A DNA stretch of 38,587 bases from a virus (taxonomy: Duplodnaviria; Heunggongvirae; Uroviricota; Caudoviricetes): the IMG/VR virus record IMGVR_UViG_3300029650_000167; one strand, written 5' to 3'. A program made the translations under genes and the position numbers. Shown in pieces: positions 4,983-33,488 of this stretch. Every line of letters starts with the position of its first letter. Position 1 is the stretch's first letter. The notes under the pieces are model-generated. The model searched no databases, was not told where the DNA came from, and was given only the letters and a program-made list of their open reading frames with translations.

Positions 4983-5062
4983 ATTTACATCGCACTCCTC
5001 TTGTGCCATAGTAATCAGGCACTGGCAAAATCCAGTGCCGGGATTGGCGTCCCGAGTTACTA

Positions 5063-5085
5063 AGTGGCGCATACCACGCCAGACG
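5063..5085 (+). terminator. rho-independent terminator-like hairpin
   Basis: Stem ACCACG/CGTGGT with 5-nt loop followed by seven T. Confidence 0.45.
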
Positions 5086-5251
5086 TGGTTTTTTTATGCG
5101 TTAAGCACAGCTATATCCGAATTATGGTGGGCTGGGCAGGGGTCCGAAAGGACGCCGGTACCACTTAGGCCGGTACGCCAACCTTGTCCAGTTCACCACC
5201 AGTAATTGGCGTTGCGGTGGTGATTAAAATCACTAAGTGGAGATAACCACC

Positions 5252-21246: not shown

Positions 21247-21543
21247 TCACTCCTGTTCACTGGCCTCTTTGGCCATCTTCAAATACTGTTCAGGGCAATG
21301 CGCCATAACGCGCTGAAACAGTTCCAGCGCCAGATTGCGTTGCCCCTCATTAAATGCCATTGCCATAGCGTCCATCGGTGAGATAGCGGAAAACACACGG
21401 CCTTTCTCCAGCACCGACCAGACAACGCGACGCCCCTGTTCACTGCTCATGACAAAGCGAATGTCATCAATTTCACGCTGCGCCATGTCACGTTGCTTAC
21501 GGGCGTTTTCTTCTTTCAGTTGATCGTCTTCGTAATCTGTCAT
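21247..21543 (-). CDS. hypothetical head-morphogenesis protein
   Basis: 98 aa, ATGA-coupled to the portal stop. Confidence 0.4.
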   Translation of the reverse strand: MTDYEDDQLKEENARKQRDMAQREIDDIRFVMSSEQGRRVVWSVLEKGRVFSAISPMDAMAMAFNEGQRNLALELFQRVMAHCPEQYLKMAKEASEQE

Positions 21544-23219
21544 TGTGATTGCCCACCCTGACCACTAACTGCATTCGCCATAGCTGACAACACACTCGGA
21601 TCCGAAGTTTTAGCTTCGCTTAGCGTCTTGGCCCCCTGTGCCGCCGCCATCCCCATCGCCATCATTTGTTGCTGCTGTTGTTGCTGTGCCCGTTGCTGGC
21701 GAGCCTGCTCAACCTGTTCCTGCGGAACAATGACGGTTGGAGACACTCCGGACATATCAGCGAATGCATCGATCGCCTGATCAACATTGAGTTTGTCGAG
21801 AGCTTCTGGTTTCGCTTGCGCAAGTTGACCAATGAAGTTGACCGTAGACGCCAGACTGGACAGGCCGATAGACTTCTGCGCCTGAGCCATGACAGAAATG
21901 TATTCGACCTTCAGGGGCATACCTTCCATCGCGTCAGGCGGTGGCGGCAGCATGTTTTTACGCACCATCATCGAGAAAGCGCGGTCAATGAGAGGATTAA
22001 GACATTCGTCGTTCAGACGCTCCAGAACCGGCCCCAACATCAGAAGTTTTTCTTCTTTCATTTCGATCACCGCTTCAACAGGCATCGAGCGGGTATTGAT
22101 GTTCTGCAACATCATGAACAGATCGACAAAGTAGGCGCTGTTAATGATTTGGCGGGTGTCCTGAATGTCTGCTACCAGATCTGCTGTACTGGGGTTAACC
22201 AGATAAGCAGGCCTGAAACCATCCTGACCAGTAATCTGATCGATATACGTGATGTCGCCAGGAAGAAGGGAGGCGCGCTGATTCTTGAGGGAAGTCGGAG
22301 CAACCATCGGCGGATTGGTGGCTTTATCAATCAACTGCGACTTGCGCTTCTGGAGAAGCTGCAATGCCTTAACAGGTCCAAGCGCCAGCATACCCGGGCA
22401 TGATGATCCATAAACATCTTCGCCGTTAACTTCCCAGCGCGGAGCCATAATTGGAAACTCATCGAATCCGGACTCACGCAACAACTTGTCGTTATCGCCA
22501 CCAACCTCGTAATAAACCGATTTGAATGGCTTGTTCTTGCTATCCAGCTTCGATGTATCGCGGTCAATGTTCGGGTAAACCGAATGCATCACTTCAATCC
22601 ACTTCTCGTAGGTGCCGCTTTCCCACATGCTTTTTACGGATTCGCTGACGTTATTTAGCCCGAACTCCTGAACAAGCTGACGAACAGTCATAGAGAACTT
22701 GCGAAAACAGGTGTCCACACTGCCACGAGGTGAGTTAGCTAGGTAGTAACTGCCTATCGGGAATGGCATTGTGCGAATGATGTCCTCGTCATCCTCCAGC
22801 ACTGCCATTGCACCAGTGCTGTATGTGCCGAGGCTTCCGTATAACTGCGGCAGAGACTGATAGAGATTCGACTTATTGAACATATCGTTCATGCGGTTCT
22901 GCACCGCCTCAAGCCACAACTTAACAGGGCCATAATCCATCATTTCAGGATCTGGCGTAGCCAGGCGAAACCACGGACGCGCGGGGCTTGTGATGCCTGA
23001 CATCATGCCGCTGGCGAGAGTGCGCGCCGCCATAGTCCCGGTCGAATCAATAATGCGTGTATTGCGTCGATCGTTACGGTTGACCTCAGAAGTCAGAAAG
23101 CGGGAACCACGTGGGTTGATGTAATCACTCAACTCGCGCCAGTGCGGCTCGAACGACTGACGCTCGCTTTCAAGTTGTGCGAACTGTTTGTTCAATCGCT
23201 CTTTAGTTGTTTCCGCCAT
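21540..23219 (-). CDS. portal protein
   Basis: 559 aa directly downstream of terminase in the late operon; Gln-rich C-terminal tail. Confidence 0.7.
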   Translation of the reverse strand: MAETTKERLNKQFAQLESERQSFEPHWRELSDYINPRGSRFLTSEVNRNDRRNTRIIDSTGTMAARTLASGMMSGITSPARPWFRLATPDPEMMDYGPVKLWLEAVQNRMNDMFNKSNLYQSLPQLYGSLGTYSTGAMAVLEDDEDIIRTMPFPIGSYYLANSPRGSVDTCFRKFSMTVRQLVQEFGLNNVSESVKSMWESGTYEKWIEVMHSVYPNIDRDTSKLDSKNKPFKSVYYEVGGDNDKLLRESGFDEFPIMAPRWEVNGEDVYGSSCPGMLALGPVKALQLLQKRKSQLIDKATNPPMVAPTSLKNQRASLLPGDITYIDQITGQDGFRPAYLVNPSTADLVADIQDTRQIINSAYFVDLFMMLQNINTRSMPVEAVIEMKEEKLLMLGPVLERLNDECLNPLIDRAFSMMVRKNMLPPPPDAMEGMPLKVEYISVMAQAQKSIGLSSLASTVNFIGQLAQAKPEALDKLNVDQAIDAFADMSGVSPTVIVPQEQVEQARQQRAQQQQQQQMMAMGMAAAQGAKTLSEAKTSDPSVLSAMANAVSGQGGQSQ

Positions 23220-23233
23220 TTCAATGACTCCGG

Positions 23234-23440
23234 TTACTGACCAAGCAGCGTTTTACCGCTGGTCTTAGCGGTTGATGTGTCGCCCTGAGAACCGGTAAGC
23301 AGCGTAGAACTACGACCAGCAGCAGCGCGACGGCGACGAGTTTCTTCGTCGCGGGCATCAACAACGGCGGCATCCTGCTCCTGTGGTGCTGCCTGAACTT
23401 CTGGTGTTGCAGGCACTGATGGTGAGCTACCCATGCACAT
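23234..23440 (-). CDS. small Ser/Thr/Ala-rich protein upstream of portal
   Basis: 68 aa with SD GGAG 8 nt upstream; low complexity. Confidence 0.3.
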   Translation of the reverse strand: MCMGSSPSVPATPEVQAAPQEQDAAVVDARDEETRRRRAAAGRSSTLLTGSQGDTSTAKTSGKTLLGQ

Positions 23441-23508
23441 ATCAATGACTCCGTACGCAATTAAATTATTACCAATTTAACCATATATGATTTATTTATC
23501 GTAGATAG

Positions 23509-23545
23509 TTGACATTTAACGCGCGAATTATTACCTTTCAGGTAA
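23509..23545 (+). promoter_or_regulatory. promoter (-35 TTGACA) with overlapping operator palindrome TTACC-TTTCA-GGTAA
   Basis: Consensus TTGACA at 23509-23514, 16 bp later the perfect operator motif (23531-23545) occupies the -10/+1 region; points toward the tRNA. Confidence 0.5.
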
Positions 23546-23867
23546 CTAAAGAGTTCATTCCGGTTACTAACCTGACTGGCCTGTCGTTAAATTGAACAGG
23601 TGGAGTGAGCTTTTATTTTGAGCAGTACGGCGTATGGCACATGCGACGATAGCGGTCTGGATACGTTTAAGTGGCACCCTCCCTTGCTCGGGCAAACGAA
23701 CCAGGTAGCCGGAATGTGCAAGTCGAGCGGTTTTATTCCGCGCACGGGGATTCACCATCCCGGCGATTCGGTGTGACGCCTCGGAAGAGACGAGGGTACA
23801 ACGATGAGAGCATTTATGGAGCCGCGACAAAGTGTGGCGCCTTAACAGGCTAAGTGCTCTCAGCGTT

Positions 23868-23944
23868 GTGGCATTAGCTCAGTTGGACAGAGCAACCGCC
23901 TTCTAAGCGGTTGGTCGCAGGTTCGAATCCTGCATGCCACGCCA
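23868..23944 (+). tRNA. tRNA-Arg (anticodon UCU, reads AGA)
   Basis: Hand-folded cloverleaf: acceptor GTGGCAT/ATGCCAC, D-arm GCTC/GAGC, anticodon stem ACCGC/GCGGT with loop CTTCTAA, T-arm GCAGG-TTCGAAT-CCTGC, discriminator G and encoded CCA. Confidence 0.85.
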
Positions 23945-23987
23945 GAATCACGCCTAAGGACCGTGATACCAGAAGTTCCAGGTGCTT

Positions 23988-24029
23988 GGCGGTGATAGTT
24001 TCCCTTGAAGGACTATCACCGCCCTTTTT
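23988..24029 (+). terminator. rho-independent terminator after tRNA
   Basis: 12-bp stem GGCGGTGATAGT/ACTATCACCGCC followed by CTTTTT. Confidence 0.75.
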
Positions 24030-24107
24030 ACAGCAGGACGCCATTGCGATGACTTCATGCTGTAAACCCGTACAGCCACGGAAGGCATAACTCATTGCTT
24101 CCAGTTC

Positions 24108-24131
24108 GCCCGGTTCGCCGGGCATTTTTTT
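24108..24131 (+). terminator. second rho-independent terminator/attenuator
   Basis: GCCCGG-TTCG-CCGGGC hairpin followed by seven T, ending 11 nt before the SD of ORF 24143. Confidence 0.65.
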
Positions 24132-24142
24132 AAGGTGAGATC

Positions 24143-24562
24143 ATGAAGACAATTGATATGTTGGCTAAGTATCTAAATGAATGGCCATTAAAATATTCTC
24201 GTATCGTTCAGGCTGAAGACTGCATTTTTTATGGCGTTTTTGCTGATAATGAAATGCATTACGAAGTAATTCAGAGTGAGGGACTGGCCGGGTTAACTCT
24301 TAGCGAAGACCATGGTACTAGCGTTACGTTCCATGACTGGATAACAGCACAACGTTCTGAAATGGAAAAAGGCGATGTGTTTGATATTTCTCGCGCTGTT
24401 TACGCTAAAGCAAAAAGTGATAATGATTACATGAGCGAACACTTATACAACATGAAGTTACAATGCCTGCATGCGGCGCTTATTCAGAATGGGCACTTCG
24501 ATAAAACAAGTGCCATCAATATTGCGGAAGCCATCAACGCTGGATTTAATGCCATTAAATAA
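24143..24562 (+). CDS. hypothetical protein, AT-rich orphan moron
   Basis: 139 aa with SD AAGGTGAG; opposite orientation to flanking terminase/portal genes; low GC. Confidence 0.5.
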   Translation: MKTIDMLAKYLNEWPLKYSRIVQAEDCIFYGVFADNEMHYEVIQSEGLAGLTLSEDHGTSVTFHDWITAQRSEMEKGDVFDISRAVYAKAKSDNDYMSEHLYNMKLQCLHAALIQNGHFDKTSAINIAEAINAGFNAIK

Positions 24563-24566
24563 CACC

Positions 24567-24578
24567 GTGACATGTCAC
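24567..24578. other. perfect 12-bp palindrome GTGACATGTCAC (copy 2 of 3)
   Basis: 5 nt after the stop of ORF 24143-24562 and before its terminator. Confidence 0.5.
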
Positions 24579-24582
24579 AAAC

Positions 24583-24609
24583 AGCCAGCCGATGAGCTGG
24601 CTTTGTTTT
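24583..24609 (+). terminator. rho-independent terminator
   Basis: AGCCAGC-N6-GCTGGCT hairpin followed by TTGTTTT. Confidence 0.65.
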
Positions 24610-24652
24610 ATCCTCATCAGAGGATATCAACGACATTATCCCCACCAGCGGA

Positions 24653-26128
24653 TTAAGCATAGGGATCGTAATCTGTGATGGCCTTGCCTTGCTGGTTCTG
24701 CTGCCCGGGAATTCGCAGACGCTTCGACACAGGGAAAGCAAACGTCAGCAGTAGCGCATCGCCTTTACCCGGCGAACGCCCAAGTCGTTCTTTGATATCT
24801 TCCTTCGGTTCGATAACGATTTTACCGTCCACGCGAACTTTGTACTCTGCCGCCGACAGATCGTCCGCTGTTTCCTGGTCATCCAGCATCCCGCCCAACC
24901 TCAGCCATGTCTTGCATGAGTTGAACATCTCCCCGCGCTTGTTGAGCATCTGAGGGTCAGTTGACGCACCACCGAACGGAACAAGTTGCCATGTGCGCCC
25001 CCAGCCGTCACCGATTGACTTCAGACCGGTTCCGTAACCGAAGTCGATGAACACCGCGTCAGCCTGATACTGGTCTTCAAAGTCAGCGATACGCTTCGCC
25101 ATAATCAGATCGTCAGTGGTCTTGTTGCCAGTCCATAGCACCTTACTATGCAACCCCTGCCGCAGGTATATCACCGCGTCATCAACGCCTGAATATGCCG
25201 GGTCAACACCGATTATCACCGGAGCATGAGCCACCTGCGCAGCGGTTACCACCCGTTTCATTGCCTCATCAGTAAGACCGGTAGGGATAAACTGCAATTC
25301 AGATGCATCAGGGAATATGCCGCGCACACGGATTTTAACGAAGTCGCTGTCTTCCCCGTAGTCATCAACCCATTTCTGCAACTGCTGTTTGTTAGTACCT
25401 TCCACCGTCCGGCTGTCAATCTGCGCAGTTTTCCAGCGGTGTTTGTATTTGCGGAAACATTCGCGAAAACGCCCGGTATTACGTGTAGGGTTTCCGAACG
25501 CCACCCAGATAATCTCAGTGTCTTCGTCCGTAAGCGCACCCTCAGCAACTTCCCACACCAGATCCGCAATGTTCGACGCTTCATCGAATACCACGATGAT
25601 GCGTTTGCGCTCGTTGTGTAGTCCGGCGAATGCCTCAGTGTTGTGCTCAGACCAGGGGATTGCGTCAGCTCGCCACCGCTTGTCGTGCCCAGGATCATTG
25701 CTGTACATCGCGGTAGCGGTACAGGTAAACCAGTCTTTCGTGATGGCAAGGTTCGACCACTTGATAATTTCCGGCCAGGTCTTCGTTCGTAGCTGGTTGT
25801 CGGTGTTGGCGGTCACCACAACCTTACAATCCTCGCAAGTGGACATGCCCCAGTTGATCAGCATTGAGATGAATGCGGATTTACCAATACCATGACCAGA
25901 AGCACGTGCCAGCATAAGCGGCTGATAGCGCGTCTCTGGATTCTGCAGGTGATCACGTATCTCTCGGAACGCATCAGCCTGCCACTTACGTGGACCGGTG
26001 GCATGTGCTAATTCAGTCCCCTCTTCCCCCCACGGGAACGCATAGAGGGCATAGCCAAGCGGATCGTGAGTGAACCCTGCAATATCCTCGATCAACTGCT
26101 CTTCAGGAGATAACGCTGTATCTGTCAC
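24653..26128 (-). CDS. terminase large subunit
   Basis: 491 aa with Walker A-like GHGIGKS near the N-terminus and acidic nuclease-like C-terminal region; GTG start overlapping the small-subunit stop. Confidence 0.85.
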   Translation of the reverse strand: MTDTALSPEEQLIEDIAGFTHDPLGYALYAFPWGEEGTELAHATGPRKWQADAFREIRDHLQNPETRYQPLMLARASGHGIGKSAFISMLINWGMSTCEDCKVVVTANTDNQLRTKTWPEIIKWSNLAITKDWFTCTATAMYSNDPGHDKRWRADAIPWSEHNTEAFAGLHNERKRIIVVFDEASNIADLVWEVAEGALTDEDTEIIWVAFGNPTRNTGRFRECFRKYKHRWKTAQIDSRTVEGTNKQQLQKWVDDYGEDSDFVKIRVRGIFPDASELQFIPTGLTDEAMKRVVTAAQVAHAPVIIGVDPAYSGVDDAVIYLRQGLHSKVLWTGNKTTDDLIMAKRIADFEDQYQADAVFIDFGYGTGLKSIGDGWGRTWQLVPFGGASTDPQMLNKRGEMFNSCKTWLRLGGMLDDQETADDLSAAEYKVRVDGKIVIEPKEDIKERLGRSPGKGDALLLTFAFPVSKRLRIPGQQNQQGKAITDYDPYA

Positions 26129-26721
26129 TGATTACCATCCTGACGTTCTTTGAGTCGCTTCCTGGCTGCTGCTATGCGATCAGCAATTGTCACATTCACA
26201 TTAACATCCAGACGTTCTTTGAACGCGTTGACATCAACATGCTTACCAATCAGTTCTAGGTTCTTCACCTTGTCAGGCCATTTAATTTTTTTGAGGATTG
26301 TCTCTATCGAATCCTCGTTCATGTTCATGATGGTCGATGACAGATCAAAGCCACTAAGCGTAGTGCGCCAGATTTTCGGCCACTCACGGATTGGTTTAAG
26401 GCTCCCATCGTCGTTGAGGATGTCGATCACGTCCATCTGGTCGATCTCCACCAGGCGCATGAGAACGTAATCAGCACTGACGCGCATTCGTTTGTTGCGC
26501 TCCTCCATCAACTCGGCAATCCGTTTTTGAATGCGTTCATCGCGCATCATGACGCTGGCTTTAACTGCCGCTGTATTTGGGGAGAATCCTGCGTTAATCG
26601 CAGCCTGAGTCTGGTTTTCAGGCGTTTTGATGTATGACTGGCAATAAGCCTCCTGCATTGCTGTGAGCGGCTTAAATTGCGTTGATTTGCGTTTATAGGT
26701 TTTAGGTTCAGCAGGCATCAT
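26125..26721 (-). CDS. terminase small subunit
   Basis: About 198 aa from ATG 26721 (SD GGTGG); basic N-terminal region; the track ORF start at 26799 would translate the operator and terminator region. Confidence 0.6.
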   Translation of the reverse strand: MMPAEPKTYKRKSTQFKPLTAMQEAYCQSYIKTPENQTQAAINAGFSPNTAAVKASVMMRDERIQKRIAELMEERNKRMRVSADYVLMRLVEIDQMDVIDILNDDGSLKPIREWPKIWRTTLSGFDLSSTIMNMNEDSIETILKKIKWPDKVKNLELIGKHVDVNAFKERLDVNVNVTIADRIAAARKRLKERQDGNQ

Positions 26722-26738
26722 AACCACCGTGGTAATTG

Positions 26739-26753
26739 TTACCGTTGTGGTAA
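26739..26753. promoter_or_regulatory. operator-like palindrome TTACC-GTTGT-GGTAA upstream of terS
   Basis: Perfect motif 18 bp upstream of the terS start, flanked by additional GGTAA/TACC half-sites. Confidence 0.5.
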
Positions 26754-26760
26754 TAATACC

Positions 26761-26790
26761 ATGCAAAATAAAGCCGCCATAGTTGGCGGC
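26761..26790 (-). terminator. rho-independent terminator between early-left operon and late operon
   Basis: On the minus strand GCCGCC-AACTAT-GGCGGC followed by TTTATTTTG. Confidence 0.55.
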
Positions 26791-26831
26791 AGTATTCAAA
26801 CCCCATCAAATTCATCATGCATAATCTACTC

Positions 26832-30572: not shown

Positions 30573-31373
30573 TTACTTGATAAATCCTGCCGCCTTTCCC
30601 CGCCTGTATTCCTCCATCAGCCACTGCGCCGGTGTTATTCCCCCAAGGGTGGCGGCGTTAGGCATGCACCCGAAACTTCGCCCTGGTGGATGGTAAACGT
30701 CTCTCCCTGTGTCCGGAGGCGTACTCATGGGCTCTGGCTTTGCCTGTATGCTGATCACCGGATCGGGTATCTGCTGTCCGGAAGCCACCTTTTTCGCCCA
30801 ATCATCGAGCAGCCTGCGTGCGTGTTTCTCAACCTCAATCTCGCTAAGCTGGCGCTGATACATTGCACGGCGGGTATCACATACGACCCAGTACATAACC
30901 GGATGTCGCCACGGGAATCTTTCGGGACCACCAGGATATAAACTTTTTTCCTTGCTGTACCGGTGAAACTCCGCCATCACATCGTCAATGGTGACGCCAA
31001 GAACCATCTTGCTGTCTTTGCACCACTTGATAAATTGCCCTGGAGACGGCCAGAACGGAGATTCACTGGCGCGGGCGTGGCGCATACCAGCAGAAACCTG
31101 TTCACGGGTTCGGATCCCCCCTTCGGCAAACGCAGCAATCCACTGCTGTTTTGCAGCAACTTCCTGCTCTGGCGTCTTCAGGTTGGTTACCACTGCCGCC
31201 GGAAACAGTTGTTTCAGCTGTTTAAAAAGGGCATCAACAAGCCTCTCTGCTGACATGTTCACCACATTGTCATTGTTGACGTACTGATGCTCATAACCTG
31301 ACATGCGAGAAAGGGCTTCTCCGTCACGGTTTTGTATCGCGGTAAAAACGTTGTTCACAAGAAATCCTCCCAT
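30573..31373 (-). CDS. replication protein P-like (helicase loader)
   Basis: 266 aa; QWIAAFAEGGIRTREQVSAGMRHARASESPFWPSPGQFIKWCKD aligns with lambda P QWVLAFRENGITTMEQVNAGMRVARRQNRPFLPSPGQFVAWCRE (recalled). Confidence 0.75.
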   Translation of the reverse strand: MGGFLVNNVFTAIQNRDGEALSRMSGYEHQYVNNDNVVNMSAERLVDALFKQLKQLFPAAVVTNLKTPEQEVAAKQQWIAAFAEGGIRTREQVSAGMRHARASESPFWPSPGQFIKWCKDSKMVLGVTIDDVMAEFHRYSKEKSLYPGGPERFPWRHPVMYWVVCDTRRAMYQRQLSEIEVEKHARRLLDDWAKKVASGQQIPDPVISIQAKPEPMSTPPDTGRDVYHPPGRSFGCMPNAATLGGITPAQWLMEEYRRGKAAGFIK

Positions 31374-32152
31374 GCTTCAGGGCTGTTCCAGTGCGGAACG
31401 TTGTTATCAGGTAATGTTGATTGCTTCTGTCTGCTAATCTGCAGCCGCCTTGCCAGCTTCTGCTCCCACTGTGCCTGATGGTATGCCTTACCCTCAGCCA
31501 TCCAGTAAATTCTGAACTCTGCAAGTTCCTGTGCCGTTGGCAGACTGTCCAGGTAGATCCCCTGCAATGAGCTTTTCCGAAGAAAGTCATCTGATGGCTG
31601 CCATTGTTCATGCATGACAAATTTGCCTAATTGCCCTGGCCCACCAGGAGGAACAAAGTTATTCATCACGGCGTTGTTTGCTCCGGGGTCATGAGGCACA
31701 GAATCCCCGCTTTTTGTCCTGCTCTCCCTCTCTTGGTTAAATGACTGGTTATATGACTGGTTCTGGATCCCGTTTTTGGGATCATTCAACATCCCGTTTT
31801 TGGGATCATTCAACATCCCGTTTTTGGGTATATTCCCGTTTTCGGGTTCATTGCCCCCCTCCCGGTTGCCTTTAATGTTCCCGTTTTTGGTTATATTAAG
31901 AGAGAAAACCCGCACTCTTTTTGTCGCTCCCTTTCTCTCTCCGGTATCTGAAATAAGCCCCATTTTCATGAGCGATATAAGCCCGGCCTGCACGGTTTTT
32001 TTATTCAGGCAAGTGTCTTTAACGAGGCGTTCTATGCTGGGGTAGCAGAGGTTATATTCATCGGCTCTGTCAGCCATCGAGAGCAGTATGAGCTTTAATG
32101 ATGAGCTACCTGGATCTGTCTCCCAGGCCCAATCTGTTGCATGTCTGCTCAT
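31355..32152 (-). CDS. replication initiator (O-like) with N-terminal winged-HTH and internal origin repeats
   Basis: 265 aa; N-terminal DWAWE...LKLILLSMADRADE...CYPSIERL HTH; central repeats PKNGMLNDPKNG encoded by iterons; SD GGAG. Confidence 0.7.
   Translation of the reverse strand: MSRHATDWAWETDPGSSSLKLILLSMADRADEYNLCYPSIERLVKDTCLNKKTVQAGLISLMKMGLISDTGERKGATKRVRVFSLNITKNGNIKGNREGGNEPENGNIPKNGMLNDPKNGMLNDPKNGIQNQSYNQSFNQERESRTKSGDSVPHDPGANNAVMNNFVPPGGPGQLGKFVMHEQWQPSDDFLRKSSLQGIYLDSLPTAQELAEFRIYWMAEGKAYHQAQWEQKLARRLQISRQKQSTLPDNNVPHWNSPEAWEDFL
31768..31890. repeat. origin iterons, five copies of TCCCGTTTTTGGG-like repeat
   Basis: Copies at 31768, 31792, 31816 (24-bp period), 31834 and 31879; each is an imperfect inverted repeat; located inside the O-like gene. 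Confidence 0.65.
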
Positions 32153-32518: not shown

Positions 32519-32749
32519 TCATGAGTAGAAGAAGTATGCCAGTTCTGCTTTTGAGCGCAGCCATTGTCTTGATTTACAGGCTTTAAAAAGCCCATCCATC
32601 AATACCTTACCTGGCATTTTGCGCTTACCTGTTAAGTGAGTCTGGATATAGTGACTCGTCGTTCCGGCTTCCTGTGCGAAGGCTTCACGCTCATCCGGAG
32701 TAAGTGCAAGCCAGTGCTTTTTGAAATCGAAATGTCCGTTATCGCTCAT
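32519..32749 (-). CDS. Cro-like HTH regulator
   Basis: 76 aa, divergent from the repressor gene; HTH-like stretch EAFAQEAGTTSHYIQTHLTG. Confidence 0.5.
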   Translation of the reverse strand: MSDNGHFDFKKHWLALTPDEREAFAQEAGTTSHYIQTHLTGKRKMPGKVLMDGLFKACKSRQWLRSKAELAYFFYS

Positions 32750-32903: not shown

Positions 32904-33488
32904 ATGAAAAGTATCCAGGACGTCCGCAGGCAAAATCTCAACGACTTGATCGACCGTGAATTCAATGGTGTTCAGACGCGGATGGCTGAAAAACTTGGAA
33001 CTCAGGCAAATCTGGTAAACCGCTGGGCTCTTGGCAAGAAGGTTATCGGCGACCAGGTTGCACGAAAAATTGAAGCTGCCGCCAATAAACCCCGTAACTG
33101 GCTTGATATCGATCGCTCGCTTTCTCAGGAAGGTTTTCAGCCTGTCGGCCCAAGCGACATTGGCCAGCTGGCGGCTCACAACCTGGAACGCTGGATGAGC
33201 GAAAGCCGCGACCTTTCAACACAGGGAAAACTTCACCGCGCATCCGGCGTAGCCCAGGTGACAATCAGCCGCCTGTTAAACAATGAGGTCAGCGTTTCCA
33301 TTTCCACCCTGGAGAATGTTGCATCCGCATTCGGGCGTCACGGCTATGAATTACTGATTCACCCGCACGACCCTGCGACCATCAACTATGATCGCTCGCG
33401 CTACGCATTGTTACCCGAAACCGAGAAAGCAAAGATCGAAAGTTACATTGAATTTGTCATCAACCAGAACGAAAAAAACAAACAATAA
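32904..33488 (+). CDS. prophage repressor with tandem XRE-type HTH domains, no peptidase domain
   Basis: 194 aa; two HTH-like segments (TRMAEKLGTQANLVNRWALGKK and ASGVAQVTISRLLNNEVSVSISTLENVA); no Ser/Lys S24 autocleavage motif; divergent from cro-like gene. Confidence 0.7.
   Translation: MKSIQDVRRQNLNDLIDREFNGVQTRMAEKLGTQANLVNRWALGKKVIGDQVARKIEAAANKPRNWLDIDRSLSQEGFQPVGPSDIGQLAAHNLERWMSESRDLSTQGKLHRASGVAQVTISRLLNNEVSVSISTLENVASAFGRHGYELLIHPHDPATINYDRSRYALLPETEKAKIESYIEFVINQNEKNKQ

Follow-up and report, generated by a model that had tools for sequence, protein, structure and literature searches.

Morons are promoter-gene-terminator insertions between conserved phage genes, a concept tied to HK97 and HK022, and expression in the prophage is their hallmark. 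In Stx phages, where the order is pR'-tR'-tRNA-stx, the Q protein at the late promoter provides read-through into the accessory gene. The dicBF operon of Qin, in Escherichia coli K-12, is composed of a DicA-repressed promoter, ydfABC, the small RNA (sRNA) DicF with its intrinsic terminator and, downstream of dicF, dicB; the DicA-repressed promoter initiates the transcript from which DicF is processed, and an internal promoter was not found (bioRxiv 10.1101/2023.04.14.536235). Here we analyse a locus for which the dicBF operon is the closest known arrangement. It lies in a 38,587-nucleotide (nt) stretch of viral DNA (IMG/VR record IMGVR_UViG_3300029650_000167, hereafter the window), and at its centre is an open reading frame (ORF) of 139 amino acids (aa) at 24143-24562 on the + strand, placed between terminase and portal and antisense to TerL, TerS and portal. 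We refer to this ORF as the cargo gene, to the place it occupies as the slot and to the conserved sequences around it as the platform.

We consider it probable, judging from the sequence, that the cargo gene is a promoterless occupant of the slot, that a unit of leader RNA, tRNA and DicF-like element is transcribed ahead of it from a repressible promoter at 23509, and that its expression requires read-through of two terminators, T1 and T2. The features of the unit, all on the + strand, are the following:

23509-23537, +, promoter: TTGACA at 23509-23514, 17-nt spacer, TACCTT at 23532-23537; best score in 23440-23560
23531-23545, +, palindrome TTACCTTTCAGGTAA, overlapping the -10 and the predicted start of the 23509 promoter
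23628-23798, +, leader RNA core, five helices including a pseudoknot (covariance model R1, 136 bits)
23799-23867, +, leader 3' module with a long-range stem (CAACGATGAGAGCA ... TGCTCTCAGCGTTG) read from aligned representatives
23868-23944, +, tRNA-Arg, anticodon UCU, reading AGA (ARAGORN; Rfam tRNA, 73.3 bits)
23977-24029, +, DicF-like element, identical with T1: hairpin 23988-24023 followed by CTTTTT (terminator scan, about -23 kcal/mol)
24027-24066, +, conserved T1-T2 hairpin (TTTACAGCA ... TGCTGTAAA), from the minimum free energy (MFE) fold and the alignment
24049-24090, +, upstream ORF (uORF) MTSCCKPVQPRKA, starting in the loop of the T1-T2 hairpin
24108-24131, +, T2, GCCCGG-TTCG-CCGGGC plus A and U7: stem 24108-24123 followed by ATTTTTTT (terminator scan, about -13 kcal/mol)
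24132-24139, +, Shine-Dalgarno (SD) sequence AAGGTGAG, 3 nt ahead of the ATG and directly abutted by T2
24143-24562, +, cargo ORF, 139 aa, pI 5.1, ATG start (ORF list)
24583-24611, +, T3: hairpin 24583-24602 followed by TTGTTTT (terminator scan)

A first-pass annotation of this DNA had described an ORF antisense to the late operon with a good ribosome-binding site, low G+C content (GC) and a terminator of its own, and our scans confirmed each of these points; GC is 39.5% in the cargo ORF vs 49.0% in the window and 52-54% in the terminase and portal genes. The two terminators that it placed between the 23509 promoter and the ORF were also found, and 23509 is the only good promoter upstream.

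The likeness to dicBF extends over several elements. Both units would have a single promoter under a CI-like repressor, which in the window is read from palindromes that also flank the repressor gene; both contain an sRNA ending in a GGCGGT...CCGCCCTTTTT hairpin; and in both a small protein gene without its own promoter follows the sRNA terminator, so that by analogy the position of the cargo gene would correspond to that of DicB. Blocks found upstream of Qin dicF (CCTGTCGTTAAATT; ACGC.TAAG.GAC) are present in the window unit as well. There are also clear differences. In Qin there is neither the 170-nt RNA core nor the tRNA nor a second terminator, and the protein genes ydfABC precede dicF. 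The window element scores 16.9 vs the 48 bits of RF00039 and is a resemblance to that family, not a member of it; the window unit sits in the late region of a podophage, not in an early-left one; and its downstream protein is unrelated to DicB.

Like a moron, the cargo gene sits between genes that are adjacent in related phages, is absent or replaced in some relatives, and has a deviant GC and a terminator, though T3 belongs to the conserved platform. Unlike a moron, it has no promoter of its own and relies on the platform, which is probably under repression in the lysogen; since the palindrome overlaps the -10 of the only upstream promoter, prophage expression would not be expected. The cargo gene and its slot are a variation on the moron hot spot and on the dicBF-type operon. 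The pR'-tR'-tRNA-stx arrangement likewise has tRNA genes and terminators between the promoter and an accessory gene that needs read-through, but the window unit opposes the late operon and bears an operator-type palindrome. With put of HK022 the unit shares a structured RNA that opens a repressor-controlled early transcript and is followed by terminators to be passed, but the leader has no sequence or structural homology to put, is pseudoknotted, 170 nt long and single-copy, and its antitermination is hypothetical. The leader RNA family is the most unusual item of the locus, and lies outside the piece (24108-24609) in which the first-pass annotation placed its finding.

The slot and its cargo

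The slot is best seen by comparison of the window with phages phiV10 and PAS61. The three are near-identical up to GGGCATTTTTTTAAGGTGAGATCA and through …GCCCGGTTCGCCGGGCATTTTTTTAAGGTGAGATCA, SD included, and their identity resumes exactly at the stop codon TAA and continues through T3. The ORFs enclosed by these flanks are unrelated (phrog_4846 vs phrog_322, the phiV10 gene being Sf6 gp66-like), so that the cargo has been replaced precisely from start codon to stop codon between a T2-plus-SD flank and a T3 flank. PAS61 lacks 33 bp of the T1-T2 spacer (window 24076-24108) and retains the cargo gene. An identical upstream flank in front of unrelated cargo, together with this deletion, indicates that the platform has no promoter at the slot.

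A survey of IMG/VR loci carrying the platform found at least five unrelated cargo types that rely on the SD only, and AAGGTGAG is common to unrelated cargo genes of the slot. Different genes occupy it in phiV10, L031, L090 and others, inserted between otherwise adjacent genes. In five loci (L007, L111, L119, L126 and L031) the cargo comes with its own -35 and -10 and with the same palindrome after T2; an example of such a cargo-borne promoter, directly after T2, is TTTTTTTGCTTGATGACCGCAAATTACCTTAAAGGTATAATCATG, with a TATAAT box and a TTACC-N5-GGTAA palindrome. That cargos in need of a promoter come with one, placed after T2, is an argument against a promoter in the platform. Near-empty slots exist too: T2 is followed by T3 in L064, and by the terminase gene in L100. 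Since T1 and T2 are kept even there, they belong to the platform and the cargo is not an autonomous element with its own attenuator, as had been proposed in the first-pass annotation.

Among 78 cargo-family loci, which are viral contigs retrieved by protein similarity alone, the leader RNA lies upstream on the same strand in 73, and in about 70 the T2 hairpin, U7 and AAGGTGA stand immediately before the ATG. An arrangement kept in about 70 independent loci is beyond chance, and the cargo family is found almost only in this slot.

Direct scans agree with the absence of a promoter. A consensus scan of 23200-24700 called none, and a relaxed scan of 24024-24150 gave poor candidates only, in which key -10 positions are missing; no candidate in 24024-24150 pairs a usable -35 with a -10 having A2 and T6. 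The first-pass annotation had seen no promoter between the tRNA and the ORF, and both scans, the shared flank and the PAS61 deletion bear this out.

The cargo gene had also been called an orphan, which it is not: its product belongs to a conserved family tied to the slot, phrog_4846 (E=2.9e-88, residues 1-139 on profile positions 1-139 of 140), with 102 homologous clusters from Escherichia, Salmonella, Citrobacter, Klebsiella, Leclercia and Cronobacter. The family is narrow, since an exhaustive profile search of 1.84 billion representatives returned only 28 clusters; a 2042-aa repeat protein from this search (P0127) was judged a spurious relative. The ratio of nonsynonymous to synonymous substitution rates (dN/dS) is 0.15-0.5 against true homologues, with dS up to about 1.9, and the ORF reads as a real gene under purifying selection and not as the pseudogene remnant that the first-pass annotation had kept as an alternative.

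A homology and structure search of the protein, suggested in the same annotation, yielded this family and no fold match. There was no match in Pfam, NCBIfam or PADLOC, a sequence profile search of the PDB gave a best E of 0.69, which is no match, and a fold search with the model returned from BFVD only a sequence relative. With a deeper alignment, AlphaFold2 reached a mean predicted local distance difference test (pLDDT) score of 83 (an earlier model was poor, pLDDT 67), with an N-terminal alpha/beta domain at 1-75, a disordered linker and a C-terminal helical hairpin at 93-137. No transmembrane segment is apparent by inspection, and the model would describe a cytoplasmic two-domain protein without recognised fold. 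In 123-aa relatives the hairpin (…HLYNMKLQCLHAALIQ…IAEAINAGFDAIK) is joined to a different, unrelated N-terminal domain, and in some family members a third domain (…VIKWLAQNVHPHHSVIIDSTHAELL…), which appears to match a separate 90-aa downstream gene in Klebsiella, is fused after it, revealing domain shuffling within the family (proteins P0090-P0099, P0012, P0068 and P0109; L005 6503-6775). The variable N-terminal domain would confer specificity, and the shared hairpin would serve oligomerisation or the binding of a common partner. Our best guess, held with low confidence, is an early factor that modulates the host or its defences.

The promoter and RNAs upstream of the slot

The first-pass annotation named 23509 a tRNA promoter. 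The promoter itself holds, but it drives the leader RNA first and only then the tRNA and the DicF-like element, and it overlaps an operator-like palindrome. Its -35 and the palindrome are conserved in relatives from Leclercia and Klebsiella, with variation in the spacer that separates them. With at most one mismatch to TTACC-N5-GGTAA, the window has 13 such sites vs a mean of 0.7 in shuffled sequences, and none of 100 shuffles reached 13. The sites and the regulatory genes near some of them are:

4588, 4968, 6029, 23531, 26721, 26739, 30459, 30521, 32449, 32786, 32834, 33546 and 33608, palindrome sites in the window
32519-32749, -, cro-like ORF
32904-33488, +, helix-turn-helix (HTH) repressor, 194 aa

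Sites 32786 and 32834 lie between the cro-like and HTH repressor genes, and sites 33546 and 33608 a short distance downstream of the repressor gene, around the TTGACA-17-AATTAT promoter of the exonuclease/RecT operon. Others are found ahead of the isrK/C4 region, the replication genes and the small-terminase gene. Because the sites flank the repressor gene and precede several operons, TTACC-N5-GGTAA is likely the operator of the phage repressor. Their distribution suggests one repressor controlling many dispersed promoters, as P1 C1 does, and we infer that the whole + strand unit would be off in the lysogen and fire early. A mapped operator for this phage group was not found in the literature searched; in the related phage ZX5, lytic growth is blocked when the homologous repressor is overproduced (PMC9782041). 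The window also has an exact direct repeat, AATTATTACC, at 23464-23473 and 23526-23535, 62 bp apart, with a third copy (33603) adjoining the early-left promoter. The AT-rich divergent region that separates a 68-aa gene from the + strand promoter holds the upstream copy, which could act as a half-operator or UP-like element.

About 330 nt separate the 23509 promoter from the tRNA, and this stretch, which holds the leader RNA, is more than a spacer. Among its invariant single-stranded blocks are GGTAGCCGGAATGTGCAAG and GGAAGAG; the first, a 19-mer at 23704, is present in more than 120 IMG/VR viral contigs, which group into 36 clusters at 93% identity. Across 22 diverse sequences the proposed structure has 93.7% of its cells paired, a share that falls to 28-51% if the 3' partners are shifted by 1-3 columns; compensatory double changes are seen at 11 pairs, and on four of five measures 0 of 500 shuffles reached the observed values. 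The stem of the 3' module closes around a variable insert and borders on the tRNA 5' end; other phages have this stem too, with a different hairpin where the tRNA would be. From this position we infer that RNase P cleavage at 23868 would define the 3' end of the leader.

Besides the epsilon15-like phages, where it precedes tRNA-Arg, the leader occurs in the early-left operon of lambdoid phages of the cdtI/Stx2c type and between trnI and ban in P1-like phages, and it was found also across loci L007-L126. The P1 copy (L127 1525-1701) scores 134 bits and that of phage cdtI (L128 2502-2671) 144 bits. R1 finds one copy each in the window, P1 and cdtI. That of cdtI, the sole one of its genome, lies directly behind cI at the head of an early-left operon with a YfdQ-family gene and xis. 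In the lambdoid contigs L012 and L042, about 8 nt separate the -10 of the cI-proximal promoter from the start of the RNA core.

The leader is absent from CPS-53 and Qin of K-12, and at E<=10 Rfam has no family for 23628-23798, only the adjoining tRNA. Its conserved 16- and 17-mers occur in no searchable paper, and searches of the literature on put-like RNAs and on the P1 ban leader retrieved nothing relevant. Three identifications were considered and rejected: HK022 put, since R1 has no match in the HK022 genome (best 3.6 bits); a boxA/nut-like element, a boxA-like site being near only two of 36 representatives; and a hammerhead-like reading of CGATGAG, whose core is by inspection not conserved. 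Both strands have small ORFs overlapping the leader, among them an annotated phiV10 ORF over the tRNA; they were treated as spurious because compensatory changes and indels fit an RNA. The leader could be a put-like antiterminator or a stable non-coding RNA freed by RNase P.

The tRNA-Arg reads AGA, and in a sample of 11 ORFs eight of nine AGA codons are in early replication genes; in the O-like replication gene (31355-32152, - strand) AGA makes up six of 14 Arg codons. No AGA codon occurs in the sampled structural and packaging genes (portal, terminase, scaffold-like). Given this concentration in early genes, the tRNA may act early and serve early rather than late translation. The annotated phiV10 gene PhiV10p04 (L001 2675-2926) runs on the opposite strand over the tRNA-Arg and T1 region, and this gene call is most likely spurious.

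The Rfam model of DicF (RF00039) aligns over its full length to 23977-24024 with 16.9 bits, below the gathering score of 48; the curated threshold being higher, we do not file the T1 element as DicF. Blocks common to it, K-12 dicF and a lambdoid counterpart (TTGGCGGT..AGTT..CCGC.CTTTTTA) are nonetheless apparent, and sequence upstream is also shared. A T1-type hairpin with a covarying stem follows the leader RNA in lambdoid phages as well; transcription must pass it there to reach xis/int or the other early-left genes, one of them of the DUF2303/YfdQ family.

Exactly three terminator-like sites, all on the + strand, were found by the terminator scan of 23200-24700; for the - strand the same scan of this island found none. 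The MFE fold of 23945-24160 contains both T1 and T2 (z-score -4.1). The stem of T2 covaries between lineages (GCCCGG/CCGGGC, GCCCAC/GTGGGC, GCCCGCC/GGCGGGC), which argues that the hairpin itself is selected. T3 acts on the + strand only and probably shields the terminase gene from antisense transcription. In L135, L136 and L145, which carry the same cargo, the 5' arm of T2 is mutated and the hairpin loses stability, from -12.9 kcal/mol to values of -4 to -7 kcal/mol; these variants could be natural read-through mutants.

Routes of transcription into the cargo gene

In the reading we favour, a sigma-70 promoter at 23509, with its -10 and start inside a likely repressor operator, would start the unit, and the polymerase would transcribe in turn the leader RNA and its 3' stem, the tRNA-Arg, the DicF-like sRNA with T1, the conserved hairpin, T2, the slot and T3. 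The cargo would bring a start codon alone and use the SD of the platform. Having no promoter, it could receive mRNA only from polymerases started at 23509 that pass T1 and T2, the read-through already proposed in the first-pass annotation and the only route that the sequence supports. The gene would be silent in the lysogen; early in induction or infection it would be made in small, terminator-limited amounts, beside three abundant non-coding RNAs. T3 would end the transcript before the antisense terminase gene, and, the + strand unit being embedded antisense within the long - strand operon of the window, convergent late transcription would later silence the cargo. Most likely, then, the cargo gene would be the distal, low-dose cistron of a mostly non-coding early unit.

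Such a platform would allow phages to exchange accessory genes as bare reading frames, possibly through recombination in the two conserved terminator flanks, and expression level and timing would be set by the platform and not by the cargo. The genes of such slots would probably have early, repressor-controlled, low-dose functions and not be morons of lysogenic conversion.

Some observations weigh against this reading. The -10 of the 23509 promoter, TACCTT, is weak (three of six consensus positions), and the consensus scan did not call this promoter. The operator is called from position and over-representation, and the palindrome could instead bind an activator. Two good terminators might leave the gene effectively silent unless they are actively suppressed, and a phage-modified promoter or one for an alternative sigma factor would escape our scans.

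Of the rivals, one would make read-through active: the leader would be a cis-acting processive antiterminator working like put, T1 and T2 would only insulate the slot against unmodified polymerase, and the cargo would be made efficiently instead of through leak. We regard this as a tentative possibility. The leader always lies in units read as repressor-controlled, in lambdoid phages, in P1 and in the window; for P1, the ban operon is presumably controlled by c1, and our analysis itself places the leader between trnI and ban. In the lambdoid relatives L012 and L042 it stands directly behind the cI-proximal promoter, and strong T1-type terminators follow it ahead of xis/int and of early-left genes of the DUF2303/YfdQ family. 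Phage cdtI has no annotated N gene, and the invariant unpaired blocks of the leader suggest contact with a protein or with RNA polymerase. In HK022, putL lies shortly downstream of PL, a position that resembles that of the leader (PMC9378689). However, the leader is no homologue of put, having 170 nt and a pseudoknot where put has two stem-loops in about 70 nt, and there is one copy per genome (window, cdtI) vs putL and putR in HK022. A terminator-resistant polymerase would also pass T3 into the antisense terminase gene, in the P1-type locus L008 no convincing terminator lies between the leader RNA and ban, and the leader could equally be a stand-alone stable RNA freed by RNase P at the 5' end of the tRNA. 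The wider proposal, that the leader is an undescribed class of cis-acting RNA which acts on the polymerase, put-like but unrelated to put, licenses it past T1 and T2, with plugged-in slot genes switched on only by polymerase so licensed, and spans three unrelated groups (epsilon15/phiV10-like, lambdoid cdtI/Stx2c-like and P1-like), is in our view doubtful. If the leader does control termination, it would be the second RNA-only antitermination system after put, and, if true, this would bear on how toxin-converting prophages begin their lytic programme.

It is unlikely that the cargo is driven independently by an unrecognised promoter between T1 and the start codon, either a weak sigma-70 promoter or one dependent on a phage factor. 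The T1-T2 spacer does hold a strongly conserved block, CGCCATTGCGATGAC, and non-canonical promoters are invisible to consensus scans. Yet this block, mostly conserved in all three aligned phages, lies in the loop of a covarying hairpin, no candidate of the spacer has a usable -35 together with a -10 having A2 and T6, and PAS61 keeps its cargo despite the loss of 24076-24108. The cargo-borne promoters that follow T2 in other loci also suggest that the platform offers none.

Control through translation seems quite unlikely. Here the uORF at 24049 would be translated, and its ribosomes would melt T2, as in pyrBI, and couple into the cargo. Its ATG lies in the conserved loop with AGGA 10 nt upstream, the Klebsiella-type uORF reads through T2 and stops in an ATGA overlapping the cargo start, the Leclercia-type uORF is in frame with the cargo, and the length of the PAS61 deletion is a multiple of three. 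In the window and in all E. coli-type loci, however, the stop codon (24088-24090) stands 18 nt ahead of the T2 stem, which begins at 24108, so that the uORF does not run across the terminator as that of a leader-peptide attenuator does. In relatives it ends at varying places and frames relative to T2, with three different frames through T2, and chance alone would keep a uORF open over about 20 further codons in about a third of cases. The hairpin stem is kept while the peptide differs (TSCC vs TLRC), and a peptide that varies where the hairpin is preserved indicates that selection acts on the RNA. The uORF is the sole candidate leader peptide, and its frame through T2 is not conserved; a true attenuator, with a regulated choice between alternative structures, would go beyond what the sequence shows. 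Where the uORF runs through T2, in the Klebsiella- and Leclercia-type loci, gene callers have predicted fusion proteins of 172-173 aa.

That the cargo ORF is a silent or decaying passenger, as two good terminators and the failure to find a promoter might suggest, is highly unlikely in view of its dN/dS of 0.15-0.5 at dS up to about 1.9, its full-length conservation in more than 100 clusters across several enterobacterial genera, its strong conserved SD and its confident fold prediction.

Host range and neighbouring genes

Nucleotide searches of the region identify the window as a temperate podophage of the phiV10/epsilon15 type, genus Uetakevirus. In the nucleotide search of 5426 E. coli genomes, matches to part of 23200-24700 came from 1106 and matches to at least 80% of it from 114; about 2% of complete E. 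coli genomes carry exactly the 139-aa cargo, and about 20% match part of the surrounding 1.5-kb query. The late genes around the slot are:

21540-23219, -, portal, T7-type (Pfam, E=1.6e-187)
24653-26128, -, TerL, 491 aa, placed between the Pfam-identified portal and TerS and annotated as large terminase in relatives
26125-26799, -, TerS (Pfam)

Rfam matches above threshold place an Hfq-binding isrK RNA at 5019-5095 and a C4 antisense RNA at 5120-5203, both on the + strand, and palindromes 4588 and 4968 lie just upstream of them; the isrK/C4 pair suggests an antirepressor control region of the P1/P7 immI type. Palindromes 26721 and 26739 fall within the 5' end of the listed TerS ORF, whose TTG start at 26799 is probably not the true one; translation more likely begins downstream of it, at the ATG opening MPAEPKTY. 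Both palindromes would then stand upstream of the start, and the packaging genes would have a point of repressor control at their head.

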